Origin: a virus
Length of the DNA stretch: 64,000 nucleotides
Reading direction: 5' to 3' (one strand)
Virus genome (UHGV): UHGV-0026213
This document shows positions 16,930-42,713 of the stretch, piece by piece. The position numbers were made by a program, and so were the translations under genes. The notes beneath the pieces were generated by a model. The model saw only the letters and a list, made by a program, of their open reading frames with translations, was not told the DNA's origin and made no database searches. Numbering within the stretch: the stretch's first letter is position 1; every line of letters begins with the position of its first letter.

Positions 16930-18063
16930 ATGTCAACATTAGATTCCGATTTAGAAGTCCTTTGCGATGACTACGATCGTTTGGTCGCGTTAGAATCGCT
17001 TAATGTTAAAGACAATTATCCGGCGGTTGTCGCTATCCGAAAACGGTGGGCTTTAGATGATGTCCACGTTGCGTTGGAGTCTGCAGCGATGATGGAACGC
17101 GCGCAATTTGTTGCGGACACCGAGCCTTACGCAGGGGTAGGTAAAGCGGTCGCACGCGCGACCGGCAGAGCGGTTAAGGGAGTTGGACGCGTTGCTGGAA
17201 AAGCAGCAGTGGCAGGAGCCAAAGCGTCTGGAAAATTCGCAGGTAAACATTCTAAGCAATTGGCCTTACGTTTTATCGACTTCGCGGAAGCCGCCGGTAA
17301 AGAAGTTATTAATGAACTGAAAGAAGCGACGTCCAAAGCATCGTCGTTAGAACGCAAGCTACAGAAGTTAGAAGCACGTTTAAGTTTACTTGGTATCAAG
17401 GACACCTTAAAACCGGTTGACTGTGACACAGGAAGTTGGACAACAAAAGTTTGTTTAGAAGACAAGCCTAACGTAAAAGCATGTATTGAGTTCAGTAAGA
17501 ACCTGAGCGCAATGGATGCGATGGTCAACGAGTATACTGTTAAAACACGTACGTTAATCGGTAAGAGCAAGAAAGTTACCGAGAGCGGTTTGGAGAAAGT
17601 GGGCCGGTCAACGAACTGGGCGATTAAACGAAGCGCAGGACTGTTCGGTATTATCGATCCGTTTAAAACGGTGAAAGCATATCCGTGGCCAGGTAACGTG
17701 GTGGTCGTTGAACACAACAACGGTAAGATTGAGTGGGCGATTGCTCGCGACGGTGATTTTGGCCACACAATCAAATCTCTGAACTTGCACGAAATCGGTT
17801 CAGCACTCGACGCCGTTAGAAACATTATCCGAGCGTTACGTCAGCGTGGTGCGAAACGACGTAGTGTAGGGTATACAGGAATTTATGACGAAATTCAGCG
17901 TATGCGTAAGGAACTTAAGTCGCTTGAAGGGCGGGAGTTACGCGACGCTACCGTACGTTATAAAAACGCACTGCGTTTAGAAGATGCGTTTACTACCTCG
18001 TTAGTGCGCGTTGCGGAAGGGTTACTGGAGTGGTGCAGGTTGTCACTGATTGAGGTTAAATAA
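16930..18063 (+). CDS. hypothetical protein (377 aa)
   Basis: ORF with GGGGTAAAGG-ATG context; Ala/Lys/Gly-rich segment then coiled-coil-like region. Confidence 0.6.
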   Translation: MSTLDSDLEVLCDDYDRLVALESLNVKDNYPAVVAIRKRWALDDVHVALESAAMMERAQFVADTEPYAGVGKAVARATGRAVKGVGRVAGKAAVAGAKASGKFAGKHSKQLALRFIDFAEAAGKEVINELKEATSKASSLERKLQKLEARLSLLGIKDTLKPVDCDTGSWTTKVCLEDKPNVKACIEFSKNLSAMDAMVNEYTVKTRTLIGKSKKVTESGLEKVGRSTNWAIKRSAGLFGIIDPFKTVKAYPWPGNVVVVEHNNGKIEWAIARDGDFGHTIKSLNLHEIGSALDAVRNIIRALRQRGAKRRSVGYTGIYDEIQRMRKELKSLEGRELRDATVRYKNALRLEDAFTTSLVRVAEGLLEWCRLSLIEVK

Positions 18064-21986: not shown

Positions 21987-22020
21987 GGGGAACTTCGGTT
22001 CCCCTTTCTTTTTTTGTTTT
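21987..22020 (+). terminator. rho-independent terminator
   Basis: GGGGAAC-TTCG-GTTCCCC hairpin followed by TTTCTTTTTTTGTTTT. Confidence 0.85.
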
Positions 22021-22069
22021 TACAGCTTTAGCGTATTGTTTTGAGACGACCTTTTAAGGAGTAATTAAC

Positions 22070-23068
22070 ATGGCTTTTAGGAAGACTATAGAACGTACCG
22101 CCACGGATTTAACAGTAGGTCGGTTAGCACGTAGAGATATTCGCAACCCTCAACTTCAGGCTTGTTTATCGGGTCCTAACGGTGCTGTGATTCGTGAGGC
22201 GTTGTGCAATAGCGAGCTGAATACGTTCTCTTTACAAAAAGGAAAAACGATCCAAGGGTTTATCATCACAAAACACATTTACGGCGACCCAACGTTACAC
22301 TGCTTGTATATGCATGAAATTGTACCGGGCTGTTTGAACAAACTGAACCTACTACTGGTACTCGACTATACCGGCTTTACGTATCTTAATCGAATCGCCA
22401 GTGGCGTAGAAGAGATCGCTGAGCTTAATGACTTAGGATTTAGACACACCCACACTACGTATCGTTTAGGTACACGCTCGTTATTGGATATCGCTCTACC
22501 AACAAACGTGAAGAACATTTCCGGCGATTTTTATAAAGAGCTAACCACTGCACAACGTGAACAGCTTATGTTGCTTTTGGGTACGAGTGTCGTTGAAAAC
22601 ATCAACGCTGACCCTGTGAGTCGCTCACGTCAAATCATGCCACAAGTCGAAACGTTGGTGGAGTTAGTACGTCATGTCAACCACCACACCTACGTTTGGA
22701 TGGACGGCAACGATGTTGTGGGCGCGGTGCAAGTTAAATTGCGTAATCTTAACGAATGTGAATTAAAAGCCATTGCGGTAAGTGAGACACATCGGGGTCG
22801 TGGTATCGGACGGACTTTATTGTATCGTGCTCTACAAATTGCATCGACAACAGCGGCACCATTAGAGATAGGGTGTTTCAATAACAACCCTGCATTCAGG
22901 CACCTGGCCGTCGAATTATTTAAATTTCGCCCCTACGAATACGAATTTGTTTTAGTGCGTGACGAAAACGTCGTCAGTTGGGAGCGTCAGAAAAATCATG
23001 TCAAATTGGTGTTAGTCGACGAAGTGTCATCGTTACAAGGCGGATATAATGCGGAAACCGATAATTAA
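22070..23068 (+). CDS. protein with C-terminal GNAT acetyltransferase domain
   Basis: 332 aa; C-terminal LKAIAVSETHRGRGIGRTLLYRAL is a GNAT motif A. Confidence 0.5.
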   Translation: MAFRKTIERTATDLTVGRLARRDIRNPQLQACLSGPNGAVIREALCNSELNTFSLQKGKTIQGFIITKHIYGDPTLHCLYMHEIVPGCLNKLNLLLVLDYTGFTYLNRIASGVEEIAELNDLGFRHTHTTYRLGTRSLLDIALPTNVKNISGDFYKELTTAQREQLMLLLGTSVVENINADPVSRSRQIMPQVETLVELVRHVNHHTYVWMDGNDVVGAVQVKLRNLNECELKAIAVSETHRGRGIGRTLLYRALQIASTTAAPLEIGCFNNNPAFRHLAVELFKFRPYEYEFVLVRDENVVSWERQKNHVKLVLVDEVSSLQGGYNAETDN

Positions 23069-23864
23069 ATGGATGGGTGGGAAAACGCGCGTTTTGGGTG
23101 AATTACAAAAGGTCTTACCTAAACGTACAACCTTTGTAGAACCGTTTGTGGGCGCAGGGTCTGTTTTCCTAAATACGAATTACAGCCGGTATATTCTATC
23201 GGATTCTAACCCCGATTTGATACGCTTACTTTGTGTTGCGCGTGAACAGCCTGAAGAACTGATCGCTGCATCGCAACCGTTGTTCTTAGACGGCAATACC
23301 ACTGTAAAGTATATGGAACGTCGTGAACTGTTTAATAGCGGTAAAACGATGACCGAAGTTGAACGTGCTGCAATGTTTTTATACTTAATGCGTCACGGTT
23401 ATAACGGGATGTGTCGTTATAACAGTAGTGGTGGGTTCAATGTTCCGTTTGGACGTTACCCGAACGGCGTTTATTATCCATTAGAAGAAATTCGGGATTG
23501 GGCTAAACGTTGCGCAGAAGTTGAGTATCTGGAAATTGTTTGTGAGGACTTTCGTTCTGTATTAGCACGGACACCTGAAGATGCCGTGATTTATGCTGAT
23601 CCTCCTTATATTCCGTTATCGGATACCGCGAAACACGCGCAATATCACCGTAAAGAATTCTCACAAACGGACCATCGCGAATTAGCCAAGTTACTACAGC
23701 AGCAGGTGGAACGTGGCAACAGTGTCGTGCTGTCAAATGCGGACACCCTACTCACCCGCGAAATTTATTACGGTTTTGAGTGGCGTAGTATTGAGGTCGG
23801 TCGCTATATGGGTGCGTCTGGTGCCGCTCGGAAAACGGTGACTGAATTACTGGGAGTGCTCTAA
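23049..23864 (+). CDS. dam: DNA adenine (N6) methyltransferase, Dam-like
   Basis: N-terminal KWMGGK, FVEPFVGAGSVF (AdoMet motif I) and catalytic DPPY (YADPPYIP); domain order typical of Dam/T4 Dam class. Confidence 0.75.
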   Translation: MRKPIIKWMGGKTRVLGELQKVLPKRTTFVEPFVGAGSVFLNTNYSRYILSDSNPDLIRLLCVAREQPEELIAASQPLFLDGNTTVKYMERRELFNSGKTMTEVERAAMFLYLMRHGYNGMCRYNSSGGFNVPFGRYPNGVYYPLEEIRDWAKRCAEVEYLEIVCEDFRSVLARTPEDAVIYADPPYIPLSDTAKHAQYHRKEFSQTDHRELAKLLQQQVERGNSVVLSNADTLLTREIYYGFEWRSIEVGRYMGASGAARKTVTELLGVL

Positions 23865-24637
23865 TGCGCATAGTGGATATCCACGATTATCGTAATGACC
23901 ATTTAGCAATTGGTGTGGACGGGAAAATGGTTTCACTAACCCGTGTACGGAAAGGGTTACTGGAAAAGGACGTCATTCGCGAATCTGAAGATCCGACCTT
24001 TATCATTCTTTCGAACACGAATCAGCTGCAAGGAATCTTCTCCGGCCGCACTGACGGTAAGATTTTCTACATGTCAGCAATCGTTGTGTTTGCGAAGAAG
24101 AACATCAATTTCGCACAACTCAAACGGTTGTTAAATGTGGAGGTGTTTGATATCACCTACCCTGCCAACGACCTAAAACGTCGCGATCAGTTAATGGCGT
24201 TCTTGAGTATGCAACCGACGTCTATCGACTATGAGCTAACGTTTACTGAAAAACCTGAAGTTCGTACCGATTTACCTGATGTAGATGATATTGAATCTCT
24301 AACGTTAGAAGAAACGTTTACGATCCCTAAGGTGGCTAATGTCAGTTTGGATACGTACTGCCTGGGTTTGTTAGCGATTGGGGCTGCCGAAGGGCTGTGC
24401 TGTCGTAAAGACGGTAAAGTTGAAGGTATCTTAGTCTATTCGAAAATCAACGAAAAGACGTTTGCCACCGAAGGTTTCTTCTATAACGACTGTACTTACG
24501 GGAATGCACTCTTAACCACATACTACCGTATTGCGTATTTAAAGGGTGCAACCGTGCGTCTTACTTTTCCATACTCAGCACCTCCAGCAATGTCTGGTGT
24601 TGAAGTAGAAGCATTAACTGGCCATTTTATCTTTTAA
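23864..24637 (+). CDS. hypothetical protein (257 aa)
   Basis: ORF overlapping the dam stop (ATGCGC within CTCTAATG). Confidence 0.6.
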   Translation: MRIVDIHDYRNDHLAIGVDGKMVSLTRVRKGLLEKDVIRESEDPTFIILSNTNQLQGIFSGRTDGKIFYMSAIVVFAKKNINFAQLKRLLNVEVFDITYPANDLKRRDQLMAFLSMQPTSIDYELTFTEKPEVRTDLPDVDDIESLTLEETFTIPKVANVSLDTYCLGLLAIGAAEGLCCRKDGKVEGILVYSKINEKTFATEGFFYNDCTYGNALLTTYYRIAYLKGATVRLTFPYSAPPAMSGVEVEALTGHFIF

Positions 24638-24646
24638 GGACATTGA

Positions 24647-24874
24647 ATGGAAATCAAACGTATTGTAACCAAAGACAAAAAGATTACTTACGTCGCAGGT
24701 GATAACGAATTCTCGGCGGTTATTAATACTGAGAACGTGCTGATTATCGGTTATCCAGGTAAAGTCATTACTCGTAGCCATCAGCGCGTGATTGACAAAC
24801 TCATCGCCAAAGCGAAAGCACGTGACGGTGTTGGGTCAGTAGAAACCCATACCGGGTTAACGTTGGCACTCTAA
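24647..24874 (+). CDS. small hypothetical protein (75 aa)
   Basis: ORF with GGACATTGA-ATG context. Confidence 0.45.
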   Translation: MEIKRIVTKDKKITYVAGDNEFSAVINTENVLIIGYPGKVITRSHQRVIDKLIAKAKARDGVGSVETHTGLTLAL

Positions 24875-24912
24875 CCAGCAGGTAATATGACCTCTTAACT
24901 GGAGACTTAGAG

Positions 24913-25419
24913 ATGAAAGAGACTCTGGATTTTAATCAGCTTGAGCAGCACGATTTTGATCTCGGTGTTCGCGACTTAGAAGCTGACTATGAAACGCGTT
25001 GTAAAGAATTCTTTAATCGCTACGGGCAATTGATTACCGGGGCATCTGAAGACACCGAATTCTCGTTAGACGATTTCGAAAAGATTCTATCTTGCTTTAT
25101 CACCGACAGCTTAGCGAAACAGGCGTTGTTGGTAGAACAGAACCTGCAAATGGTGGAGCCTACGGATGCTCACGCCGTGCTAAAAGAATCCATTATTCCG
25201 AACGACGAGATTATGGATGCGGTAGCAGGTATTCGCGGTACGTTCGACACAGCTGTGGAAGACTATACCGAACAACTTCGTGAGTCTGGACTAACGTTGT
25301 GTGCACCTGCGGGCGAACAGTTACCTTCTGAAGAAGAAACGGAAGAAGCACGTAGTCGCTTAGCGCGCTATGTGATTACTTCTGTTTTAGTAGACGATCG
25401 CGAAGAAAACGTACTGTAA
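24913..25419 (+). CDS. highly acidic hypothetical protein
   Basis: 168 aa, rich in D and E with few K and R; terminator follows. Confidence 0.5.
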   Translation: MKETLDFNQLEQHDFDLGVRDLEADYETRCKEFFNRYGQLITGASEDTEFSLDDFEKILSCFITDSLAKQALLVEQNLQMVEPTDAHAVLKESIIPNDEIMDAVAGIRGTFDTAVEDYTEQLRESGLTLCAPAGEQLPSEEETEEARSRLARYVITSVLVDDREENVL

Positions 25420-25424
25420 ACTTT

Positions 25425-25460
25425 CCCTCTCTCCGTTTGGAGAGAGGGAGTATTTATTTT
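25425..25460 (+). terminator. rho-independent terminator
   Basis: CCCTCTCTCC-GTTT-GGAGAGAGGG hairpin followed by AGTATTTATTTTT. Confidence 0.85.
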
Positions 25461-25517
25461 TACGCTTTCGTGTCTAATTATGCACACGTAAACAAAATTA
25501 ATTGAGGAACAGCTTAA

Positions 25518-25853
25518 ATGTGGTTAAGTGCGATTCACCGTGATTTACCAAAACAAGAAATGGTATTTACTGTTGGCGAGCCAGCAACTGTAGTGGGTGT
25601 TGCTAAGTTCGAAAGGGTAGAAGAAGGTCAATTCGTCGTAGTGGACGACAACGAAAACGAATTCATGTTGTTCCACCCTGAGGTCGATACCTCTGAAATT
25701 TGTGAGGGTTCTCTTTTGTTGTCCTGGCAAGATCCTGAAACCGGCGCATGGAAGTGGCGTGTCGCTAAACCGACGCTTGAAACAGAATCTGCATACGTGA
25801 TTGAACACGTATACGTGTTTGGGGAAACTTATGTCGAACCAAAACCACACTAA
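25518..25853 (+). CDS. hypothetical protein (111 aa)
   Basis: ORF with GAGGAACAGCTTAA-ATG context. Confidence 0.5.
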   Translation: MWLSAIHRDLPKQEMVFTVGEPATVVGVAKFERVEEGQFVVVDDNENEFMLFHPEVDTSEICEGSLLLSWQDPETGAWKWRVAKPTLETESAYVIEHVYVFGETYVEPKPH

Positions 25854-26139
25854 TACCGACGAAACGAATTTACAGCGCTTGCAACGGGCACTAACTGCAC
25901 CGCTAGGTGGCGAGATTCACGATCGATGGGTAATAGCAAGGGTGGTAGAAATTGACTATTCTCAGGATCAGTTACTGTTAAATAACTGCTCGACGAACGT
26001 GCCTTTCACGTTACCGCGCGCTGTATTCCGCCTTACACCCAACGTTGATGAAATACTGACTATTGACAGGAAACTTCTATCGATAGAACTACAGCATTTC
26101 CCGCTGCCTGGTAAGTCGGTTAACATCGCGCTGTGTTAA
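25831..26139 (+). CDS. hypothetical protein (about 102 aa)
   Basis: Track ORF 25801-26139; ATG at 25831 is preferred and overlaps the upstream 3' end. Confidence 0.45.
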   Translation: MSNQNHTNTDETNLQRLQRALTAPLGGEIHDRWVIARVVEIDYSQDQLLLNNCSTNVPFTLPRAVFRLTPNVDEILTIDRKLLSIELQHFPLPGKSVNIALC

Positions 26140-26174
26140 TGACAGTCTAAAAAACTTAAGATATATTTCATCTA

Positions 26175-26194
26175 TGTGAGAATTCTCACTTAAC
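26175..26194 (+). promoter_or_regulatory. conserved palindrome/promoter-like element
   Basis: TGTGAGAATTCTCACTTAAC, a perfect GTGAGA/TCTCAC inverted repeat, 18 nt upstream of the gene start at 26213. Confidence 0.35.
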
Positions 26195-26212
26195 TAAATG
26201 GAGTAATCTAAA

Positions 26213-26482
26213 ATGGGTAAGATTTATATTGTTGAGAAACGTGCGGGTAATGTTCTTTCCTATTACGAAGAAGGTAAACCTGAGAAAATTAAAACACTCA
26301 AACTCGACGGATTTGATGTGAAGAGTTTACGCAAGGGTGTGAAGATTACCTTTAAAGGTCTGACTCGCGTAAGTAACTTACACATTGTTAAGGCCGATGG
26401 TACGATGGTTGCGTTAGCACCTGTCAGTGCTGCGAAAACGACAGCAGGTCGTGGATGCTACGGTAGCAGTCGTAAGATTTAA
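26213..26482 (+). CDS. small hypothetical protein (89 aa)
   Basis: ATG after GGAG; terminator follows. Confidence 0.5.
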   Translation: MGKIYIVEKRAGNVLSYYEEGKPEKIKTLKLDGFDVKSLRKGVKITFKGLTRVSNLHIVKADGTMVALAPVSAAKTTAGRGCYGSSRKI

Positions 26483-26488
26483 GCAGTG

Positions 26489-26528
26489 CCCCTCTCTCCT
26501 AACGGAGAGAGGGTACTTTTATTTTTCT
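26489..26528 (+). terminator. rho-independent terminator
   Basis: CCCCTCTCTCC-TAAC-GGAGAGAGGG hairpin followed by TACTTTTATTTTTC. Confidence 0.85.
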
Positions 26529-26540
26529 TCGAGGTGTGCG

Positions 26541-27029
26541 ATGACAACAGTTTTAGTAACAAACGATTACATTTTAGCTGATCAGTTGGTTGATTATGGC
26601 GGTACAGTTAAAGCGTCACCTAAATTACACAAGTACAAAAACAAATTCGTTGTTTATACTGGGGAACGCGTATTGGACTCGGATTTCTGGAAAAAGACGA
26701 TGATGGTCGCAGTAGAAAAATATTTGATTGAAGAAAAGCGAGCCAAGGTTGAAGGGTTATTTAAAGATCTTATCGAAAAAGAACTGTTTTACGATCAGAT
26801 AATCATTTACACAGCTGAGGAAACACATTGGCTCGGGCTGCTAGAGGGTAAATTTGAATCCCGTGTACTGAATAAAAACACGGTTTGGGCAACGGGTTCT
26901 GGTGGAGGATTTGCACGGGCTGCTTGGGCAACTGGAATATCAGAAAAGAATATTATTCCATTAGTAGGTTCGATTGATACAGCTTCATCACAAACGTACG
27001 ACTTATTTTACAGGAAGCACTTACGATGA
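26541..27029 (+). CDS. HslV-like N-terminal-nucleophile (proteasome beta-type) hydrolase
   Basis: Begins MTTVLV (Thr at position 2, as in HslV MTTIV); central Lys-rich stretch; ATGSGGGFARAAWATG matches the HslV IGSGGPYAQAA motif. Start reset from track 26427 to ATG 26541 after GAGGTG. Confidence 0.45.
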   Translation: MTTVLVTNDYILADQLVDYGGTVKASPKLHKYKNKFVVYTGERVLDSDFWKKTMMVAVEKYLIEEKRAKVEGLFKDLIEKELFYDQIIIYTAEETHWLGLLEGKFESRVLNKNTVWATGSGGGFARAAWATGISEKNIIPLVGSIDTASSQTYDLFYRKHLR

Positions 27030-27547
27030 AAATAAACGCTGTCTTAATTGGCGATGAAATATTCGTTAATACAAAAACACAATATCTGTATTACGAAGGT
27101 ATTACCGTAATAGACGATTATTACGGTAAGCACGGTTGGTGGATTCCGTCTCCTAACTCCTTACGATTAGAAGATGCATTAACCGCCGAAAAGAACAAAC
27201 TGGATAGCGATTGGACTTATATCAGTTCCGTAATTGACGTCAGCGGTCGAATTAAAGACGTCTACTGGGCTAAAGAGTCAGGGTGGCGTGTTACGCTACA
27301 CCAACCAACACCAGTAAGATTGTTGTACGACCACTCGGATAGTTCAGAGTTAGCGTTTACCATTGAGACGCTCTCGGTACGTAAGGATCTAGACAACGTA
27401 GGGAAAGGGAAGTGGTCTATTGAGCGCATTGAGGAGATTCTCAGCCACTTTAAAGCCAACAACAAATTTAAACGTTGGTGTACGTTACCTGAGTTAGTAG
27501 AGGAGTTGAAAAAGCGGTATTGCAAACCGCTACCTTTTAACCCGTAG
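27026..27547 (+). CDS. hypothetical protein (173 aa)
   Basis: ORF overlapping the upstream stop (ATGA). Confidence 0.55.
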   Translation: MKINAVLIGDEIFVNTKTQYLYYEGITVIDDYYGKHGWWIPSPNSLRLEDALTAEKNKLDSDWTYISSVIDVSGRIKDVYWAKESGWRVTLHQPTPVRLLYDHSDSSELAFTIETLSVRKDLDNVGKGKWSIERIEEILSHFKANNKFKRWCTLPELVEELKKRYCKPLPFNP

Positions 27548-27593
27548 TCTTTTTTACAACTGCGGCTATTTTAATGATTAGGAGAATATAGAG

Positions 27594-27989
27594 ATGACCG
27601 CAATAATAGGTATAATGTCAAGAAAAGCTGATGTCATTAGGACATTTATCGACCAATATAACAACTCACCGTATACGCGTCTTAGATTGCGTAAACCCCA
27701 GAATAGCACAGAATGGGTTCGCTGGTTTAATATTTGGGATAAAACAATAAGTAAAATCAATCCGTTATTCAGAATTAGGGTTGAGCCTGCTTATTGGATT
27801 GTAATGGAAATATCGCTATTACGTATTCTCGAAAAACGTCCTATAGACGTAAAGACGATGTTTGGGGTAGATACGTATAAAATGTTGAACAATGGTTTTG
27901 TGGGTAATGGGGAACACACATTGTATCAAGCGATGCTGGAAATGTGTTTGTTCGATTTAGTTACTTACGAATTGGGGATTTCAAAATGA
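27594..27989 (+). CDS. hypothetical protein (131 aa)
   Basis: ORF with GGAGAATATAGAG-ATG context. Confidence 0.5.
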   Translation: MTAIIGIMSRKADVIRTFIDQYNNSPYTRLRLRKPQNSTEWVRWFNIWDKTISKINPLFRIRVEPAYWIVMEISLLRILEKRPIDVKTMFGVDTYKMLNNGFVGNGEHTLYQAMLEMCLFDLVTYELGISK

Positions 27990-28450
27990 ATTACTTCGAA
28001 TCTAAAGAAATTGTTGAGTTGTTTAAACAGCGTGAGAAAACTGCTTTCCGTGACTTGTACGATTCTGATTATCGCCCACTGTTTGCGGTATTAATGCGAC
28101 TGGATAAAGAACCCGAAGTCGCGTTAGCAGAGGTACAGCACCACCACGTCAGTTTCGTATTAACCGAAAACATGAGCCGGTGGGTAGACGGTATGCTGAT
28201 CCGTATTGGGCTCTTGGAAACGCCACACCGTTGGGAAGTGGTTATTCAGAAATCATTGTTCCCACGGGAAGATATTTTCAACAAATATCGTCCGAAGCAG
28301 TATTACAATCACGACGGGTCACCAAAACGTCCTTTCCTGGCACCCCAACATTTTGTAACCTACGTAACGCTACGTTATAAAGACACCGTGGTGCCGTTTG
28401 ACACCTATCTGGAAATGCGTGAGATAATTTTAGGGAAGAACCCAACATGA
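27986..28450 (+). CDS. hypothetical protein (about 154 aa)
   Basis: Track start 27944; ATG at 27986 overlaps the upstream stop (ATGA) and is preferred. Confidence 0.5.
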   Translation: MNYFESKEIVELFKQREKTAFRDLYDSDYRPLFAVLMRLDKEPEVALAEVQHHHVSFVLTENMSRWVDGMLIRIGLLETPHRWEVVIQKSLFPREDIFNKYRPKQYYNHDGSPKRPFLAPQHFVTYVTLRYKDTVVPFDTYLEMREIILGKNPT

Positions 28451-28929
28451 ATCAATTTTCTGTTGATGCAGAAAGACTAGCGTCATTTAAAGAGCGTAGT
28501 CAGTTTGCAGTTAAAAACGGCTATATTGAAAAAGGTGTTCGTGACACCTGCAAGCTAATCAACGACCATCCACACTTGGCGACAATGTGGAGTTGTGAAG
28601 GTCACGGTATGTATTCTAAGTCACCTGGAAATCTGCATATCGTTTTTGCAACAGACGCTATTGGAAGTCAGATTCCAATGCAGGTTATGACTGAACTTGC
28701 AAAATCGGATTTACCGAATTTCTGGAATCTTAGTTTGTGTCGTCTTTATATACCAGATGCATACACGGATTTGGTATATCTTGAACCTGATTACGGGTTA
28801 AATACCGACGACACTTCTTACTGGTCTTGGAAAATTGGATACATGTGCTTGATTAATCGTCCCGCGTTAATTGAGACACGTCAAGCTCTTTACAAAGCAT
28901 TTCATACAGTATTAGTTGAGAATAAATAA
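28447..28929 (+). CDS. hypothetical protein (160 aa)
   Basis: ORF coupled to the upstream gene (ATGA overlap). Confidence 0.5.
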   Translation: MNQFSVDAERLASFKERSQFAVKNGYIEKGVRDTCKLINDHPHLATMWSCEGHGMYSKSPGNLHIVFATDAIGSQIPMQVMTELAKSDLPNFWNLSLCRLYIPDAYTDLVYLEPDYGLNTDDTSYWSWKIGYMCLINRPALIETRQALYKAFHTVLVENK

Positions 28930-29621
28930 TGGCTACCAAACAAAAGAAACCGCGTAACAAAAAGTATAATCCGAAAGCCGCTGCTAACCGTACTGCGCAC
29001 ACCATTGCTGAAAATGCGCTAAACCGCATTACTTTCGTCGGTAGCTCTATTCGTCCTATCGGTCCGTACGCGGGCCGTGGTTTCCAGTTTACAACGTCAC
29101 CGCGTATGCGCATGGCGGCTACCGATATGTTAATCGGTGGTTTGTTTGACGAGCCACGTAACTGGAAACTGTGGGTTGCGCATCTGTACGAAACAGATAA
29201 TGGTGTGCAAGCAGAAACCATCGTGGCAACGCTTGACGACTACACGTTAAGTGATTTCTGTCAACACGGTGACAAGATCATCAAGTCGCTACGCGAGACG
29301 GAAGAAAACTACTTCGGTTATGCTTTCGTTGCTGCACCTAACGAACGTTATGATTTCGACCAGGGAGAAGAACGCTTACTGGAAAACTTCATGCATTCTG
29401 GGCTGTTAGACAAATCCCTACACCTACCTGAAGAAGAACTGATGGTTACGCGTAAGGATATGGTAACGTTGCTGTTAGCCGATCGTGGACGTTTTGATGT
29501 TACCGAATCCCATGTACGTAAAGTACAGAAGCTCGTGGATAAGGTCGACGAAACTGACCTGGACACTAGCGAAGTCGCAACGCGTATCCAATCGGTAGTT
29601 AATCAGGAAGAGGATTACTAA
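28929..29621 (+). CDS. hypothetical protein (230 aa)
   Basis: E. coli-like high-expression codons (CGT, CTG, GGT); N-terminal basic segment. Confidence 0.55.
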   Translation: MATKQKKPRNKKYNPKAAANRTAHTIAENALNRITFVGSSIRPIGPYAGRGFQFTTSPRMRMAATDMLIGGLFDEPRNWKLWVAHLYETDNGVQAETIVATLDDYTLSDFCQHGDKIIKSLRETEENYFGYAFVAAPNERYDFDQGEERLLENFMHSGLLDKSLHLPEEELMVTRKDMVTLLLADRGRFDVTESHVRKVQKLVDKVDETDLDTSEVATRIQSVVNQEEDY

Positions 29622-29623
29622 AC

Positions 29624-30145
29624 GTGATAGCGCGACTTGCGAGTTGGTTTAAGCAACGTCGGGCAAAGGCGGTCGAATGGCCGCCTATTACGCACGATGA
29701 AAAGGTGGTTGCTTTTCTGAACTATAACAAAGACTTGAAGAAATTGGGCGAAATAATGCGCCTAACGGAAACTCAGGTCTTTGCTAAGATTTCAAGTAGT
29801 GCTTTACGTAAACAGATAATTCCCCACCTATCCTTTTCAGGACAGGTTTATGCATTAACAGCAGAGGAATTTTTATCGATGGTGGGGAATGAAACCCCAC
29901 GTATACGGTACTCGGTTACGGATTCATCTGATGCGGTCGGTACGGTCGATTTCGGACGATTGTATCAGAGCATTAAAGACGTGGGCCATATACATGTTAA
30001 ACGTGTATCAGAAACTTCTGTAGTGATTTATCATCGTACTGAGCACGATTTGTTAGGGCGTGTTATAACGCTAACAAATTTACATAGTTTTTACGTTGAT
30101 TTACTTACAGGGTTTTATCCAGAACCATGGTGTTTTATACGATGA
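29624..30145 (+). CDS. hypothetical protein (173 aa)
   Basis: GTG-initiated ORF directly after the upstream stop. Confidence 0.5.
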   Translation: MIARLASWFKQRRAKAVEWPPITHDEKVVAFLNYNKDLKKLGEIMRLTETQVFAKISSSALRKQIIPHLSFSGQVYALTAEEFLSMVGNETPRIRYSVTDSSDAVGTVDFGRLYQSIKDVGHIHVKRVSETSVVIYHRTEHDLLGRVITLTNLHSFYVDLLTGFYPEPWCFIR

Positions 30146-30354
30146 AAAGAGCTAATGGATACATCATCTCAGCGATTGTTTCAACCGTGCTGGTTGTGAC
30201 GATGCTGATGTTTTATGTTCGTGTGTCAGATGACTCGCGCAAAGAAAGTCTTTATCGTGAGTGTATGTCAGGAACGACCGTGGACAATCCACGTTACAGC
30301 GAATTGGTAATGGCGTGCACAGAACATGCTAAACTAATGGGAGATGGTCGATGA
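30127..30354 (+). CDS. small membrane protein
   Basis: Single hydrophobic helix (YIISAIVSTVLVVTMLMFYV); alternative start at ATG 30142; two Cys in the C-terminal part. Confidence 0.4.
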   Translation: MVFYTMKRANGYIISAIVSTVLVVTMLMFYVRVSDDSRKESLYRECMSGTTVDNPRYSELVMACTEHAKLMGDGR

Positions 30355-30548
30355 AGATTTGGTTACCGATTGTAGCTTTCATCCTTATCGCTGGGGCACT
30401 AGCAAGTGCCGAGTGCGACAATCGTGTTTTAGAAAAGAAAAGCGAATTGTATCAGGATTGTATAAAGGATTACACACCAGGTACAGAGCTTCATGCACAG
30501 GCTGTAAAAAGTTGTGCGCTGATGGCTGAATCGCAGACTCGTTCCTAA
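30351..30548 (+). CDS. small secreted or membrane-anchored protein
   Basis: MKIWLPIVAFILIAGALASA-EC signal-like N-terminus; C-terminal part resembles the preceding small protein (shared Cys spacing). Confidence 0.45.
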   Translation: MKIWLPIVAFILIAGALASAECDNRVLEKKSELYQDCIKDYTPGTELHAQAVKSCALMAESQTRS

Positions 30549-30922
30549 TGCGTATCTGGACGTTACAGCTCGCTAAGTGGCGGTTAGCTAAGCAGAAAGG
30601 GTTTCACGCAGTGGATATCACTGTGAAGTCAGGGCGAAAGGAACTCGCCCCCGACTGGGATTTCTTAATGGCGTATAAAAACTCTGCAAAGGATGCAGCT
30701 GCTGAACGCGAGTACACGATAAAGTATTTGTACAAACTCGAACGACTGTTAGATACAGACGCCGAAACTTTAGTGTCGTTACTTAGGCACGATGACTTGG
30801 TTTTGATGTGTTATTGTCCCGCAGGTAAGTTTTGCCATCGTCATCTACTGGCGAGCAAGCTTCAAGAGGTGGGATTGATGTTCGGTATCGACATTGTGTT
30901 GTGTGGAGAATTAACGGACTGA
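30548..30922 (+). CDS. DUF488-family protein
   Basis: LVLMCYCPAGKFCHRHLLA matches the DUF488 C...C......CHR signature. Confidence 0.5.
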   Translation: MRIWTLQLAKWRLAKQKGFHAVDITVKSGRKELAPDWDFLMAYKNSAKDAAAEREYTIKYLYKLERLLDTDAETLVSLLRHDDLVLMCYCPAGKFCHRHLLASKLQEVGLMFGIDIVLCGELTD

Positions 30923-31773: not shown

Positions 31774-34700
31774 ATGGCTAAAGCGGTAAAGAAAATTCGT
31801 TTACACGATTTACGTCCATACACCGGGGATATCGGTGAAGGCGTTTTACTTTTTTCGAAAGACGAAAGGGATTATCAGTTACCTGTCCGCGAGATTGTTG
31901 CGGATATTGACACCGTCAGAAACGCGGTTGCTGACGCACAAACGGCGGCGGCCAAATCGCAACAGTCTGCAACAGAAGCCACACAAGCAAAAGACTTAGC
32001 AGAAACAGCGAAGCAACAAACTGACACGTTAGCTTCCACAGTTAGCGAGCAAGCGGGAACCGTTGCCACTAAAACTGCCGAGGTTAGCAAAAAACACGCT
32101 GAAGTTTTAGCCGCGAAAACGGCCGTAGATACTGTATTACAATCGGTAAATGAGAAAGCTCAAGCTGTCGCCACAAGCGAACAATCGGTGACGGCTGCAG
32201 CGGCTGATGTAACTAAGAAAGCAGAAACGGTTACGCAACAGGCCGGACAAGTTCAACAGACGGCTACCGGTGTCGAGAATACTGCGGCTTCAGTTGAGGC
32301 CAGTAAGGGCGCAGTGGAGAAGATTGCTGCACAGGTCGCGAAAGATAAAGAAAGTTCAGAAGGCGCAGCAACACGTTCGGAGTCAGCTGCCTTACGTGCG
32401 GAGAAAATCGCTGCGCAGGGCTTAATCGACGCCAGTACGACCGGTAAAGGTATCGTTAAACTTAACGATACACTGACTAGCGAATCCGTGACTGAGGCCG
32501 CCACACCGTCCACGGTTAAACAGCTGAATGACGAATTACAGTTAAAAGCCAATAAACATTCGCCGAATTTTACGGGTAAACCGTCATCCCCAACACCCCC
32601 GAAGGACTCGAACGACACGAGCATCTCCACAACGGCCTGGGTGCGTGACGCGATTGCGGAACTGGTTGGTTCTTCACCCGAGACGTTAAATACCTTAGCG
32701 GAATTAGCTGAGGCGTTAGGTAATGACCCTAACTTCGCAACAACGATTACTGGGGAACTTGCGCAGAAACAACCTCTCAGTCCGTTGCTCACCGCCATTG
32801 CCGCAGTCACCACAGCGGCAAATAAACTCATGTATTTCACTGGCAGTAATAAAGTCCGATTAACGGATTTTACAGAAACGGCTAGATCCTTGTTAGCGAA
32901 AGGGTCAACTGCGGATATCATCAATTTCTTGGGATTAAGAACCACCGTAGATAAAGCGAATGGTGCGCTACAGAAAAACTCTAACGGCGCTGATATCCCA
33001 GATAAAGAAACTTTTGCTCGAAACATCGGCCTATCTCCTGATACCTATCTGCGTTTCCGTGGCGAAATGCCTGTAGATGCTGATATTAACACATTTGCTC
33101 CAGATGCCAATTACACAGGAACGTGGGCTAAGTCGACATCAACCAATGCGTCGATGGCAAAACACTTCCCAGAAGACGGTGCGGTCGGTTATCTGGAAGT
33201 GTATAAAGCCGGTAATTACAGCGGTGCGCAACGTTTTACCTGTCGTAATGGTAACGTGTACAACCGTATGTTGTCAGGTGCGTGGAATGGTGCCAATGGA
33301 CCCTGGTCGCCGTGGAGAATGGTAACTACTGGTGTACGTCCGTTATCTACCTCTATAGACTTGAACTCTCTGGGTGGCGCTGAGCATATGGGTAACTGGC
33401 GAAACTCAAGCAGTTCGCTGGCTGTGTTTAGCAGACATTACCCTGAAGAAGGTGGTGGTGCGCAAGGCGTACTAGAAGTAATGGAAGGTGGTCTTTTCGG
33501 ACGGTTGCAGCGATACACTACGCGTCGTGGTACAATGTATGTTCGTGGTTTGACTGCAACGTGGGATTCATCAAACCCACAATGGGAAGATTGGATTCAG
33601 GTTGGTTATCAGACTGACGGTGCTTTCTTTAAAGCCAATTTTAACGATCTCGTTAAACCGGGACGTTTCAGTGTCACTGGTGAAGCAACTAATGGCCCAC
33701 TTACCGGTTCTTCTGGTGAAACCATATTAGGTGTTTGTGAAGTTACCTTACGCTTAGACGGTACAGGGGTCGAACAGAATTATACTACATACGGTACGGG
33801 TGTAGAAACTAAAGGTCGTAAATTCCAACGTATCCGTACGGGTAACGCTTGGAGCGATTGGCGTGAGGTTTTCACATCGTATTCGCTTCCGCTGGTATTA
33901 GGTATCGGCGGTGAACGTGCGAATGTTGATCCTTTAGACTGGCAAACCTATGACTTTAAACCAGGTGAGTTAATCTGTACGCCGCTTAACACCATGAAAA
34001 ACATTCCTGCGGGAATGGATTGGGGTGTTATTGACGGTAACTTAGTTAGCATTCTGGTTGGTCCATCAGATGGCGCATCCTCAGCCCGGAGTATGTTGGT
34101 TTGGCGTAGTACGGTGTCTACTGCCAACTATCGATTCTTTGCAGTACGTATCGCTGGTGAGAAAGGTAGTCGTACGATTACGCCACGACAGATGCCTGTA
34201 TTGAATGCAGCACACACCTGGGCAGAAAAACAGACCTTTGCAAAAGGGTTAGCAGGCGAGTTAACAGGCAATGCTTCAACCGCAACGAAATTAAAGACCG
34301 CACGTAGAATTGGTGGAGTCGCTTTCGACGGTAGTGGTGATATTAACCTCCCGGGTGTTAACCAACAAGGTAATCAAAACACCACGGGTAATGCCGGTAC
34401 AGCCACTAAACTTCAAACTGCCAGAAATATTAACGGTGTGAGATTCGATGGTTCTGCTGACATCAATATCAACACCTTGGTGGGTCGTGGTCGGGTTACT
34501 GCACTAACCGGTTCAAACAAAGGTACGCCTGGTATTCAGATGTACGAAGTTTACAATAACGGTTATCCGACCGCTTATGGTAACTTGCTGCATTTGGGCG
34601 GTTCTACTGCGCTAGGTGAAGGTGAACTGTTAATCGGTTGGTCGGGCACGAGTGGTGCGCACGCACCCGTTTATATTCGTAGTCGACGCGATACAGCGGA

Positions 34701-36375
34701 TGCGCCGTGGTCAGATTGGGCACAAGTTTATACTGCCCGTGATAGTATTCCTGGTGTAAATACCACCGGTAATCAAGATACTACTGGTAACGCTGCTACC
34801 GCGACGAAACTGAAAACTGCTCGCAGAATCGGGGGCGTTACCTTTGACGGTACTGGGGATATCAATTTACCGGGGGTTAACCAGCAAGGTAACCAGAATA
34901 CGACAGGTAATGCAGCAACCGCCACTAAGTTACAAACACCACGTAAGATCGGTGGTGTTAACTTTGACGGTTCGCAAGACATTAGTCTGCCCGGTGTGAA
35001 CCAAACCGGTAACCAATCGACTACGGGGAATGCTGCGACTGCGACTAAGCTCCAGACTGCGCGAAATATAGGTGGCGTAGCTTTTGATGGTACCAAAGAC
35101 ATCAACTTACCTGGCGTAAACCAAACGGGTAATCAGTCGACCACCGGAAACGCGGCCACGGCAACGAAGTTGCAAACTGCAAGGACCATCAACGGTGTTC
35201 CGTTTGATGGCACTAAAAACATCGAAATAACGGCTGAAAGTTTAAACCTTGGGCAAACTGTAGAATTGGCCGGTGGGTCATTGCAGAAGAAACAGAACGG
35301 TGCCGATATTCCAGATAAAAGGAAATTCTTACGAAATGTTGGTGCCCCGAACACAACAACCATATCTTTTAATGGTGGTGCCGGATGGTTCAAACTGGCA
35401 ACTGTAACGATGCCACAAGCCAGTTCCGTGGTTTACATAAGCCTGATTGGTGGTGCAGGGTTTAACGTTGGTTCCCCGCATCAAGCAGGTATCTCTGAGC
35501 TGGTTCTGCGTGCAGGAAATGGGAATCCAAAAGGTATTACTGGTGCGTTATGGCGACTGACCTCAGTCGGCTTCACTAATTTTGCATGGGTGAATACATC
35601 TGGTGACACTTACGATATTTATGTTGAAATAGGTAATTACGCCACCGGTGTTAATATTCAGTGGGACTACACTAGTAATGCCAACGTAACGATTCACACA
35701 TCGCCAAGTTATACGGCTAATAAACCCGCAGGACTAACAGACGGTACCGTCTATCTGATTTACAGCACACACAACAAACCTAACGCTGGTGACGTCGGTG
35801 CGTTACCGTCAGGGGGCGGTACTATAGGTGGCGATTTAACCGTTAACGGTAAATTGGTCACTAAGTACCCTGATTTTCGAATCGCTTACGGCAACTACGG
35901 CTTTATGTTACGTAACGATGGTGCCAATACCTATTTCTTAGTAACCGACGCCGGACAAGCTGCAACGGGTTCCTGGAACGGACTACGTCCGTTGTATTTT
36001 AATAACGCTAACGGCCAAGTAACCTTTGGTCATAACGTTACTGGCAGCGGTAACGGTTCGTTTAACGACGTACAGATTCGTTCTGACCGTCGTAACAAAC
36101 GTAATCTGGTGAAACTGGATAAAGCTTTGGATCGGTTAGAGTTACTAACCGGTTATTTGTACGAAATTCAGCATCCGGATGACGGTTGGCAAACCTCTGT
36201 AGGTCTAATTGCTCAAGACGCATTAGAAGCGTTACCTGAACTTGTGTCTGAGGATGATGATGCCATTTCAGGCGAAAAACGTTTACGTCTAAACTACAAT
36301 GGCGTTATTGCGCTGTTAGTAGAGGGTATGAAAGCGTTGCGTCAAGAGGTTAACGAAATTAAAGGAAGATCCTAA
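31774..36375 (+). CDS. long tail fibre protein with tandem fibre repeats and C-terminal intramolecular chaperone (peptidase S74-like) domain
   Basis: 1533 aa; Ala/Thr/Gln-rich N-terminal shaft; at least six copies of TTGNAATATKLQTAR.I.GV.FDG..DINLPGVNQ; C-terminus SDRRNKRNLVKLDKALDRLELLTGYLYE... resembles the auto-cleaving chaperone of endosialidase and T5 L-shaped fibre. Confidence 0.85.
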   Translation: MAKAVKKIRLHDLRPYTGDIGEGVLLFSKDERDYQLPVREIVADIDTVRNAVADAQTAAAKSQQSATEATQAKDLAETAKQQTDTLASTVSEQAGTVATKTAEVSKKHAEVLAAKTAVDTVLQSVNEKAQAVATSEQSVTAAAADVTKKAETVTQQAGQVQQTATGVENTAASVEASKGAVEKIAAQVAKDKESSEGAATRSESAALRAEKIAAQGLIDASTTGKGIVKLNDTLTSESVTEAATPSTVKQLNDELQLKANKHSPNFTGKPSSPTPPKDSNDTSISTTAWVRDAIAELVGSSPETLNTLAELAEALGNDPNFATTITGELAQKQPLSPLLTAIAAVTTAANKLMYFTGSNKVRLTDFTETARSLLAKGSTADIINFLGLRTTVDKANGALQKNSNGADIPDKETFARNIGLSPDTYLRFRGEMPVDADINTFAPDANYTGTWAKSTSTNASMAKHFPEDGAVGYLEVYKAGNYSGAQRFTCRNGNVYNRMLSGAWNGANGPWSPWRMVTTGVRPLSTSIDLNSLGGAEHMGNWRNSSSSLAVFSRHYPEEGGGAQGVLEVMEGGLFGRLQRYTTRRGTMYVRGLTATWDSSNPQWEDWIQVGYQTDGAFFKANFNDLVKPGRFSVTGEATNGPLTGSSGETILGVCEVTLRLDGTGVEQNYTTYGTGVETKGRKFQRIRTGNAWSDWREVFTSYSLPLVLGIGGERANVDPLDWQTYDFKPGELICTPLNTMKNIPAGMDWGVIDGNLVSILVGPSDGASSARSMLVWRSTVSTANYRFFAVRIAGEKGSRTITPRQMPVLNAAHTWAEKQTFAKGLAGELTGNASTATKLKTARRIGGVAFDGSGDINLPGVNQQGNQNTTGNAGTATKLQTARNINGVRFDGSADININTLVGRGRVTALTGSNKGTPGIQMYEVYNNGYPTAYGNLLHLGGSTALGEGELLIGWSGTSGAHAPVYIRSRRDTADAPWSDWAQVYTARDSIPGVNTTGNQDTTGNAATATKLKTARRIGGVTFDGTGDINLPGVNQQGNQNTTGNAATATKLQTPRKIGGVNFDGSQDISLPGVNQTGNQSTTGNAATATKLQTARNIGGVAFDGTKDINLPGVNQTGNQSTTGNAATATKLQTARTINGVPFDGTKNIEITAESLNLGQTVELAGGSLQKKQNGADIPDKRKFLRNVGAPNTTTISFNGGAGWFKLATVTMPQASSVVYISLIGGAGFNVGSPHQAGISELVLRAGNGNPKGITGALWRLTSVGFTNFAWVNTSGDTYDIYVEIGNYATGVNIQWDYTSNANVTIHTSPSYTANKPAGLTDGTVYLIYSTHNKPNAGDVGALPSGGGTIGGDLTVNGKLVTKYPDFRIAYGNYGFMLRNDGANTYFLVTDAGQAATGSWNGLRPLYFNNANGQVTFGHNVTGSGNGSFNDVQIRSDRRNKRNLVKLDKALDRLELLTGYLYEIQHPDDGWQTSVGLIAQDALEALPELVSEDDDAISGEKRLRLNYNGVIALLVEGMKALRQEVNEIKGRS
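34268..35235 (+). repeat. tandem ~33-codon tail-fibre repeats (Phage_fiber_2-like), codon-diversified
   Basis: Repeated NTTGNAATATKLQTAR...FDG..DINLPGVNQ units in two blocks; amino-acid identity is high but synonymous codons differ between copies. Confidence 0.75.
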
Positions 36376-37157
36376 TGGCAGTTGTCGGCGTAGGTGGTTG
36401 GATTGGTTCTTCAGCAAAAGCTGAAGCTGGTAACGAATGGATGTCTGGCGCGATGCGCACACTTGGTGTGCCGGTTCCAGGCTGGATGTCGCAATTGGCG
36501 GGAAAATCAAAAGAGGTCCATTATTCTATTGGTGCTAACCATAGCTATAATAAGGATACTCTTATTAACTATTTACGTTCTTTAGGCTCTACTGCTGTCG
36601 TTGTGACCATTACAGGGGATTTAGTGTCTTATAGTAGCGGGGTTCCTTGTTTAGAATTCCCTAGCAATCTTCCAAATTCGTATATTACACTCATCATCAA
36701 TCCTGGGGTTACAGTATACGGCAGAGGAGGCAACGGCGGTTCTAACTCACCAGGCGGTGCAGGTGGAACCGCAATACAGAACGGAATAGGAAACAGACTG
36801 CGTATAACCAACCGTGGCGCTATTGCCGGAGGCGGTGGCGGCGGTGGCGGCGGTAACAGGGGTAGACTAATATTTGGTGGTGGCGGTGGTCGCCCATTCG
36901 GTGCTGGTGGGTCTTCCTCTCATATGAGTTCCGGTGCGGCTGCTGGTACTATTTCCGCTCCTGGTAAAGGATCTGTTGGTGAGGGGTCTCTTAGTGCATA
37001 TACAGGCGGTTCGGGTGGTAATGTCGGTGCTGCTGGAGGAAGATGTAATACTCATGGTAACGGTACAGAATATAACGGCGGAGCAGCTGGTGCAGCTGTT
37101 ACTGGTAATGCGCCAAGATGGGACGCAGTAGGTGCAATATACGGTTCACGTGTTTAA
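36375..37157 (+). CDS. glycine-rich protein, possible receptor-binding adhesin (T-even gp38-like)
   Basis: 260 aa with poly-Gly tracts (GGGGGGGGGNRG, FGGGGGRPFGAGG); start overlaps the fibre stop; N-terminus conserved with the next gene. Confidence 0.5.
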   Translation: MAVVGVGGWIGSSAKAEAGNEWMSGAMRTLGVPVPGWMSQLAGKSKEVHYSIGANHSYNKDTLINYLRSLGSTAVVVTITGDLVSYSSGVPCLEFPSNLPNSYITLIINPGVTVYGRGGNGGSNSPGGAGGTAIQNGIGNRLRITNRGAIAGGGGGGGGGNRGRLIFGGGGGRPFGAGGSSSHMSSGAAAGTISAPGKGSVGEGSLSAYTGGSGGNVGAAGGRCNTHGNGTEYNGGAAGAAVTGNAPRWDAVGAIYGSRV

Positions 37158-38610: not shown

Positions 38611-38748
38611 ATGGTTCAACCAATTGGAAAGAAACGTATCCATGAACTCGACAATTTCTCTGGCGATCTCAAAGGTGCGGTAGTTCTCCTTTCTAAGGAA
38701 GAAAAAGAATATAAAATTGATATTGCAGAACTTCAAGGGGGGGGGTGA
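38611..38748 (+). CDS. N-terminal virion-anchor segment of the tailspike, in a different frame from the esterase body
   Basis: ATG 5 nt after GGAGG; encodes MVQPIGKKRIHELDNFSGDLKGAVVLLSKEEKEYKIDIAELQGGG, homologous to the first 45 aa of the 31774 fibre; frame ends at TGA just after the G9 tract. Confidence 0.5.
   Translation: MVQPIGKKRIHELDNFSGDLKGAVVLLSKEEKEYKIDIAELQGGG
38737..38745. repeat. homopolymeric G9 tract at the tailspike frame junction
   Basis: Nine consecutive G; one extra G would fuse the upstream anchor frame to the esterase frame. Confidence 0.9.
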
Positions 38749-42197: not shown

Positions 42198-42713
42198 ATG
42201 TCAGTAAATATTAACATGAATCTTTATACTAAACGTGAACGTCAGATTCTGGCGAATCAACCCGGTGTTACGACTATCGACGGTAAACCTATTGACCGTT
42301 TAAAAGTTATCGTTGCGCGAAATTGTCATGAACGCGATTGGGACATTACCTACTTCCGTTGTTGTTCGGTCGCAAATGCGCTTACTCAACTCTCTAACTA
42401 CCACTCAGGACCGCTATTAAAAGACTGGGTTTGGTTAGTGCCTAGAACACCCTCAGCAATTGAGTATCCTTCTGGGTTAGTTTATATTCGTCCTGTCGCT
42501 TACCCAGAGCGTCTGAAAGAGTATCTTGAAGTTATCTGGAACCGTCCTCGTAAAGAGCTGGTGACGATTATTAATTTACTGCAGCAGATCGAAATCCCTG
42601 GTGTTTTGAATTTGAAACTCACGTCTCGCGATATTAACCAGGCTTACTGGGAACTAGAGTGGACTGAACCGAAATTCGAAAACAGTAACCGCATTTTCTT
42701 GCATCGGGGGTAA
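42198..42713 (+). CDS. hypothetical protein (171 aa)
   Basis: ATG after AAAGGAG. Confidence 0.55.
   Translation: MSVNINMNLYTKRERQILANQPGVTTIDGKPIDRLKVIVARNCHERDWDITYFRCCSVANALTQLSNYHSGPLLKDWVWLVPRTPSAIEYPSGLVYIRPVAYPERLKEYLEVIWNRPRKELVTIINLLQQIEIPGVLNLKLTSRDINQAYWELEWTEPKFENSNRIFLHRG

Follow-up and report, generated by a model that had tools for sequence, protein, structure and literature searches.

A divergent HslV-like protein with conserved active-site residues in a phiKZ-like jumbo phage lineage that lacks an HslU-like gene

Introduction

Does a small phage gene encode a peptidase of the HslV type, and if it does, with what partner would that peptidase work? The question is raised by a 162-amino-acid (aa) open reading frame (ORF) at positions 26541-27029 (+ strand) of UHGV virus genome UHGV-0026213, within a 64,000-nucleotide stretch (hereafter, the window). 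An earlier reading of the letters alone (the sequence-only reading) had proposed that the product, whose N-terminus reads MTTVLV, is a proteasome-type, HslV-like N-terminal-nucleophile (Ntn) hydrolase that might be paired with host HslU. We place the 162-aa protein in the proteasome-like Ntn-hydrolase family as a divergent member, its nearest relative among solved structures being HslV/ClpQ, and find that its lineage has no HslU-like gene of its own.

Results

The 162-aa protein is a divergent proteasome-like Ntn hydrolase

Searches with the single sequence returned nothing relevant from Pfam (best match DUF5678, E=0.064) and only noise from the PDB (phmmer; rhodanese, E=0.13). Because neither search gave anything meaningful, a family profile was needed. 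When a profile of 20 family sequences was run against the PDB with HMMER, the sole significant match was Trypanosoma brucei HslV (4hnz; E=4.6e-5, residues 11-151). Comparison with Escherichia coli HslV by hhalign gave E=1.6e-4; the E. coli sequence used agreed with PDB 5ji3 from end to end, apart from one conservative mismatch. Among phage protein groups, the 162-aa protein matched the PHROG profile phrog_1040, named 'peptidase HslV family' (E=2.7e-5, residues 1-159). When 1.84 billion representative proteins were searched exhaustively with a profile, 146 clusters were recovered at E<=1e-3, and among the 106 relatives from this search that we aligned, 87 also matched phrog_1040 (best 1.1e-49) and 20 matched the Pfam Proteasome family PF00227 at E<0.01 (best 2.5e-7).

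Fold prediction led to the same family. An AlphaFold2 model built from the 20-sequence alignment (mean predicted local distance difference test score, pLDDT, 85.8; predicted template-modelling score, pTM, 0.83) has the alpha-beta-beta-alpha Ntn core, with helix pairs at residues 48-61 and 64-80 and at residues 122-130 and 135-145. In a Foldseek search of the PDB with this model, the top five matches were all HslV (probability 1.00, template-modelling scores 0.59-0.68); 4hnz, 4ho7, 1m4y and 1ned came first, 6kr1 and 3ty6 were also found, and 20S beta subunits followed, again at probability 1.00. The same fold is present in many phage proteins in BFVD, including those of the phiKZ-like phages PhiPA3, Noxifer and Psa21. 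The sequence-only reading had conceded that it would fall if no similarity to the Ntn-hydrolase fold were found; instead, the model is Ntn/proteasome-like and its structural neighbours are HslV. Its central claim of an HslV-like, proteasome-type Ntn hydrolase is borne out by the profile searches, the fold prediction, the fold search and the conserved catalytic set described below.

Several observations weigh against this assignment. The 162-aa protein has no PF00227 match even at E<=10; it is not matched by the NCBIfam HslV equivalogs TIGR03692 and NF003964; the hhalign probability against the single E. coli HslV sequence was just 50%; and our literature search found no enzymatic, oligomeric or expression data for this phage branch. 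The protein is also 14 residues shorter than HslV and ~20% identical to it. Fold and active site place it in the proteasome-like Ntn superfamily, where it falls in the jumbo-phage branch of the 'peptidase HslV family' group, PHROG 1040. Failing the PF00227 and NCBIfam models, and differing from HslV in length and sequence to this extent, it is not a bona fide HslV.

The active-site residues are conserved

The proteasome-like family is defined by an N-terminal Thr/Ser, Asp17, Lys33 and an oxyanion-hole Gly47 (PMC8665760). A HMMER alignment with 4hnz and an hhalign alignment with E. coli HslV were used to place the equivalent residues in the phage protein (all codons are on the + strand; conservation is counted in the alignment of 106 distant relatives). 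Thr2 (codon 26544-26546), directly after Met1, is the predicted N-terminal nucleophile; it corresponds to HslV Thr1 and is Thr in 92 and Ser in 14 relatives (i.e., Thr/Ser in 106/106). The catalytic Asp17 of HslV and the proteasome is represented by Asp14 (26580-26582), which is conserved in 106/106 and lines up with the Asp in 'GDRQ' of 4hnz and in 'AGDGQ' of E. coli HslV. Lys28 (26622-26624), which sits in the Lys-rich stretch KASPKLHKYKNK, is the counterpart of the catalytic Lys33 of both enzymes and is present in 104 of the 106. Gly41 (26661-26663), Gly in 101/106, aligns with HslV Gly45 and proteasome Gly47 and is a candidate oxyanion-hole Gly, as judged from its alignment position and the family description in PMC8665760. 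Finally, Gly119-Ser120-Gly121 (26895-26903) match the HslV G-S-G and are aligned with its IGSGG (Gly 106/106, Ser/Thr 100/106, Gly 106/106), within a longer segment in which GSGGGFARAA (residues 119-128) is aligned with HslV GSGGPYAQAA. Residues M1, T2, T3, D14, K28, T91, G119, G121, A125, G132, D146, Y157, R158 and L161 are invariant in the 20-sequence alignment.

The sequence-only reading had drawn attention to a Thr immediately behind the initiator Met, a Lys-rich segment near the position of HslV Lys33, and a GSGG(G)FARAA motif. These three observations are correct, because the residues align with those of HslV and are conserved in relatives. The alignments with 4hnz and E. coli HslV narrow the Lys-rich segment to Lys28 specifically, and conservation at the Thr1, Lys33 and Ser/Gly positions, which that reading had left to be checked, is evident from the counts above.

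It is well established that methionine aminopeptidase takes off a Met that precedes Thr, and for the catalytic Thr of E. coli HslV this is described in PMC6429459. In the phage protein, the host methionine aminopeptidase would likewise remove Met1 to leave Thr2 as a free N-terminal nucleophile, Asp14 and Lys28 would complete the catalytic triad, and Gly41 together with Gly119-Ser120-Gly121 would form the oxyanion hole and the active-site loop. So equipped, the protein would cut peptide bonds as a threonine peptidase, and, solely by analogy with HslV and BPH, it may assemble into a ring-shaped homo-oligomer. Since the fold, the alignment and active-site conservation are all shown here, we consider it likely that the protein is a threonine peptidase of the proteasome/HslV type that uses Thr2 as nucleophile after Met removal.

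The same fold could instead serve a non-proteolytic Ntn enzyme that acts as a monomer, such as a sequence-specific, connectase-like ligase/transpeptidase or an amidase. In keeping with this, Fuchs et al. caution that a proteasome-like homologue does not necessarily assemble or cleave polypeptides, and connectase is a monomeric ligase without the H1/H2 helix pair (PMC8665760). Yet both of the subunit-contact helix pairs of HslV and the proteasome are predicted in the phage protein, whereas connectase lacks the first. Moreover, HslV was the only significant sequence match in the PDB, while BPH, Anbu and connectase all scored below HslV and none gave a sequence-level PDB match. We therefore regard a non-proteolytic function as very unlikely.

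Translation starts at the ATG that places Thr directly after Met

An N-terminal nucleophile of this kind depends on the start codon. The coding sequence (26541-27029, + strand) ends in a TGA stop at 27027-27029, and a Shine-Dalgarno-like GAGGTG is read at 26531-26536, 4 nucleotides 5' of the ATG at 26541. Further upstream, a terminator scan revealed a terminator-like hairpin at 26490-26513 (+ strand; CCCTCTCTCC-TAAC-GGAGAGAGGG; the stem has 10 bp, 7 of them GC pairs, and a T-run lies 3' of it) that lies between the upstream gene, whose stop is at 26482, and the start of the HslV-like gene. Of 55 homologues that share 70-91% identity with the protein, 49 have 162 aa, the other six being fragments or 149-aa forms. 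The N-terminal MTT is present in all sequences of the close-family alignments and in 100 of the 140 clusters newly recovered by the exhaustive profile search.

Mechanical extension of the ORF reaches a GTG at 26427, and the sequence-only reading had recognised that a true start there would bury the Thr. This GTG is not used as the start: the extended frame would overlap the upstream gene and span the hairpin, and full-length homologues are 162 aa. The position of the upstream stop, the hairpin, the GAGGTG and the homologue lengths together indicate that ATG 26541 is the true start, and the MTT start, the homologue lengths, the ribosome-binding site and the hairpin all agree with a 162-aa product carrying Thr right after Met, as first proposed. 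Pairwise dN/dS (the ratio of nonsynonymous to synonymous substitution rates) was 0.08-0.34 among nine orthologous genes of the lineage without an HslU-like gene, which indicates that the gene is real and under purifying selection.

Two hairpins in this region, at 25426-25447 and 26491-26512, share the same 9-bp stem (CCTCTCTCC-N4-GGAGAGAGG), each with a T-run after it, and bracket three small genes 5' of the HslV-like gene; no such pair is expected by chance. The pair resembles a phage terminator or regulatory element put to use more than once.

Relation to known phage homologues

HslV-like phage proteins as a kind are already known from the PHROG 1040 name, from Erwinia and Cronobacter phage annotations, and from the survey of phage proteasome homologues by Fuchs et al. 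2021 (PMC8665760). In a tblastn search of phage genomes, Cronobacter phage CR5 and the Erwinia phages Phobos, EarlPhillipIV, Derbicus and pEa_SNUABM_6/38 yielded homologues that align over the full length (26-31% identity), and Machina-like phages gave C-terminal matches. Several of these homologues are labelled 'peptidase HslV family' or 'putative HslV-like ATP-dependent protease' in the RefSeq records of Erwinia and Cronobacter phages, whereas the window protein and its close homologues are filed publicly only as 'hypothetical protein'. PHROG 1040 relatives such as Phobos gp123, the Cronobacter CR5 protein and pEa_SNUABM_43 QQO90609 (26-31% identical over the full length, or 48-52% over the C-terminal 44 residues) resemble the window protein in having GNAT and Dam genes upstream, a ~180-aa gene downstream and the same invariant residues. 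The Erwinia and Cronobacter relatives differ from it in carrying an HslU-like AAA+ protein of their own a few genes downstream.

The wider family is large. With one ~150-aa relative (P0110) as query, tblastn matched 590 phage records, with hosts that include Salmonella (230 records), Escherichia (137), Caulobacter, Klebsiella, Vibrio and Pseudomonas, and with labels such as 'HslV family peptidase', 'putative Ntn hydrolase' and 'ATP-dependent protease subunit'. These matches include 42-kb Jerseyvirus genomes, in which no AAA+ gene is annotated. Two HslV ORFs without HslU had already been noted in pSal-SNUABM-04 (PMC7823757). In the literature that our search covered, 'peptidase HslV family' appeared in one paper, only as a genome annotation, no paper pairing 'HslV-like' with 'phage' was found, and no activity, structure, partner or substrate was found for any phage HslV-like member.

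Compared with HslV/ClpQ itself (PDB 1m4y, 1ned, 4hnz), the phage protein has the same Met-Thr-Thr start without a propeptide, the same aligned Asp, Lys, Gly and G-S-G positions, a similar size, and two helix pairs flanking the beta core. It differs in the length and identity given above, and its gene has no adjacent hslU, nor is there one anywhere in the closest complete genome (see below). PPH and AAH are phage-borne proteasome homologues described by Fuchs, Alva and Lupas 2021 (PMC8665760), and as these authors define them they share with the window protein a compact group-I architecture, an origin in tailed phages, no propeptide, no C-terminal S12/H5, and a Thr/Ser-Asp-Lys triad with an oxyanion-hole Gly. 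Our family profile search also recovered many proteins of ~140-150 aa that match at their two ends only, as a PPH-like architecture would. PPH, however, is ~140 residues long and lacks helix H2 (PMC8665760), whereas the window protein has 162 residues and its model contains both helices of the first pair. Set against that description of PPH, the window protein is, on its predicted structure, not a strict PPH.

An HslU-like gene is absent from this lineage

A phiKZ internal-head-protein domain is encoded at 16930-18063, and the window is from a phiKZ-like jumbo phage. A megablast search of the region against a phage collection gave no match; the closest complete genome turned up in a plasmid collection, where NZ_CP134650.1 (circular, 222,441 bp) is filed as an Enterobacter ludwigii plasmid and is 85.5% identical to the window over 22000-30000. 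Near-identical contigs of ~224 kb are also present in many Salmonella enterica isolate assemblies. The E. ludwigii 'plasmid' and the Salmonella contigs suggest a phage carrier state or persistent co-culture with the isolates. NZ_CP134650.1 encodes an S80 prohead protease, which argues that the HslV-like protein is not the head-maturation protease.

A synteny map of the window against Phobos, CR5, Huxley and a further locus (L007) showed a shared gene order. In the relatives, a homologue of 24913-25419 and one small gene are followed by the HslV-like gene, a homologue of 27026-27547, a homologue of 28929-29621, and small genes. Next come an HslU-like AAA+ gene (580-730 aa; Pfam AAA_2 and AAA; HslU-type N-terminus), a gene of 314-345 aa, and homologues of 30548-30922 (DUF488-N3a) and of 42198-42713. 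The site in the window that is syntenic with the HslU-like and 314-345-aa genes (29622-30547, + strand) holds nothing beyond one ORF of 173 aa and some small ones. On the 5' side of the HslV-like gene, at 22070-23864, a GNAT acetyltransferase gene (332 aa) overlaps the gene for a Dam-type N6-adenine methyltransferase (271 aa), and the two are syntenic with those of Machina-like Erwinia phages.

These relatives raise the possibility that the partner is a phage HslU-like ATPase. An HslU-like AAA+ gene lies 5-7 genes 3' of the HslV-like gene in six relatives (Phobos, CR5, Derbicus, Huxley, pEa_SNUABM_43 and L007), its products have an HslU-type N-terminus (TPxEIVxxFDxxVxGQxxAK in the phage HslU-like ATPases P0212-P0241), and at least eight phages with a window-type HslV-like gene are also among the HslU-like matches listed from the phage collection. 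The window's own lineage, in contrast, lacks the partner gene that a bona fide HslV would be expected to have. We found no HslU-like gene in the 64-kb window by tblastn with 31 HslU-like proteins or with a hidden Markov model (HMM) built from them, nor in eight further loci of the same lineage. A search of viral contigs with the family alignment returned only 8 loci, and these were close relatives without exception. In all 222,441 bp of NZ_CP134650.1, no AAA+ unfoldase was detected by tblastn, HMM or a Walker-A scan. In this lineage the HslU-like searches hit nothing but a coiled-coil protein, at 13 bits, and the one large P-loop protein that NZ_CP134650.1 encodes is SMC/SbcC-like. One HslU-like protein, P0241, was considered as this lineage's own and rejected: it comes from a different jumbo phage, which carries GroES/GroEL and a ligase.

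Even where the gene is present, the C-termini of P0212-P0241 read ...LRG, ...LDG and similar, not the canonical ...SRFIL tail that docks into HslV. Because this tail is missing, coupling of the phage HslU-like proteins to any HslV-like peptidase is not assured. In phage RAY, the HslU-like homologue is located in the phage nucleus (preprint 10.1101/2023.02.24.529968), which also speaks against such a partnership. A phage-encoded HslU-like partner is ruled out for this lineage unless the genome beyond the 64-kb window differs from its complete relative, and we regard it as extremely improbable. Since the lineage is without an HslU-like gene, its peptidase must work alone, with the protein encoded by the coupled 173-aa gene at 27026-27547, or with a host unfoldase such as HslU.

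If a host unfoldase is used, the phage peptidase could replace host HslV on the HslU hexamer and redirect ATP-dependent degradation to host regulatory or defence proteins. On its own, HslV has weak peptidase activity and needs the C-terminal tails of HslU to be activated (PMC6429459), which counts in favour of such a hijack. So does the finding that no AAA+ unfoldase is encoded in a complete 222-kb genome of the lineage, yet the gene is under purifying selection with its active site intact. The wider phage family is likewise mostly orphan, as the P0110 matches and their Jerseyvirus members illustrate, and the hosts of those matches are mostly Proteobacteria. Proteobacteria normally encode HslUV. 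Against this stand the divergence of the protein from HslV in length and identity and the poor alignment of the region that would receive the HslU tail: EcHslV Phe54, Phe57 and Gln114 form the pocket that takes this tail (PMC6429459), and over this region the hhalign alignment is gapped and of low confidence. In addition, the phage HslU-like gene near the HslV-like gene in close relatives suggests that the ancestral partner was phage-encoded, not host-encoded. The absence of an HslU-like gene leaves room for a role of host HslU without demonstrating one, and we consider this form of hijack unlikely.

The downstream 173-aa gene and a second paralogue

The gene directly 3' of the HslV-like gene (27026-27547, + strand; 173 aa; phrog_25529, E=1.2e-20) overlaps it, its ATG sharing the ATGA with the HslV-like stop. 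A homologue of 170-182 aa is found directly 3' of the HslV-like gene in every jumbo-phage locus that we examined, and three distant loci (L023, L024 and L025) keep the pair though their wider neighbourhoods differ. By this adjacency, the downstream protein is a candidate partner, regulator or substrate adaptor. It has no meaningful match in the PDB (best E=0.058, an auxiliary relaxosome protein) or in Pfam, and a model from the single sequence was unusable (AlphaFold2, pLDDT 36.8). We also considered that it might be a hidden, inactive alpha-like proteasome subunit and rejected this, as hhalign against the HslV-like family gave a probability of 0.1-0.2%, along with the lack of a PDB or Pfam match.

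The peptidase and this coupled 170-182-aa protein could form a self-contained module in which the latter acts as regulator, cap or adaptor and no AAA+ unfoldase is involved. The overlapping or abutting gene pair in every jumbo-phage locus examined, including the three distant ones, fits this idea, as does the retention of the pair with or without an HslU-like gene. The argument is one from adjacency, however, to a protein with no family or fold recognisable by PDB, Pfam or hhalign comparison (0.2%), and neither the second paralogue described next nor the Jerseyvirus homologue has such a neighbour. We hold a self-contained module to be doubtful.

NZ_CP134650.1 encodes a second HslV-family paralogue of 166 aa at 88426-88926, beyond the region to which the window corresponds. 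Its sequence contains MTTIVF..., CDGQ, K, IGSGA and YDLYSGG, and judged by these motifs it looks equally active. It scores 12.8 bits against the NCBIfam HslV models, whose cut-offs are 137 and 158, and it has no conserved downstream partner gene.

A broader scenario joins these observations: an ancestral HslU-like unfoldase would have been lost while two intact HslV-like paralogues and the 173-aa neighbour were kept, and the peptidase would then have switched to host HslU, or would build, independently of an ATPase, a new particle with the downstream protein or a ring mixed with the second paralogue; in either case it would be directed at specific host regulatory or defence proteins. Taken as a whole, we think this chain of events decidedly unlikely.

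Other features of the window

Downstream of these genes, a T4-type long-tail-fibre module at 31774-37157 encodes a 1533-aa fibre with Phage_fiber_2 repeats, a Gp34 trimerisation domain and an S74 intramolecular chaperone, and, after it, a gp38-type adhesin; the module lies in an ~11-kb stretch (~30.9-42.2 kb) that is mostly without counterpart in the Erwinia relatives. The 663-aa product of 38745-40736 has both a SASA-type carbohydrate (sialate O-acetyl) esterase domain and DUF6645, and is a possible tail enzyme for receptor modification. On the - strand, 54797-57026 encodes two neighbouring radical SAM / 4Fe-4S proteins (440 and 307 aa), which the E. ludwigii relative also has.

Discussion

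Phage homologues of HslV and the proteasome are widespread, and what is new here is the genomic context of this one: the absent HslU-like gene, the second paralogue and the conserved neighbour. The main gain for now is that a 'hypothetical protein' can be renamed, by sequence, an HslV-family Ntn peptidase with its active site intact. Sister lineages with a phage HslU-like ATPase and this lineage without one offer a natural comparison for asking whether such peptidases need an unfoldase, and whose. If capture of host HslU were true, it would be a new viral way to re-programme bacterial proteolysis.

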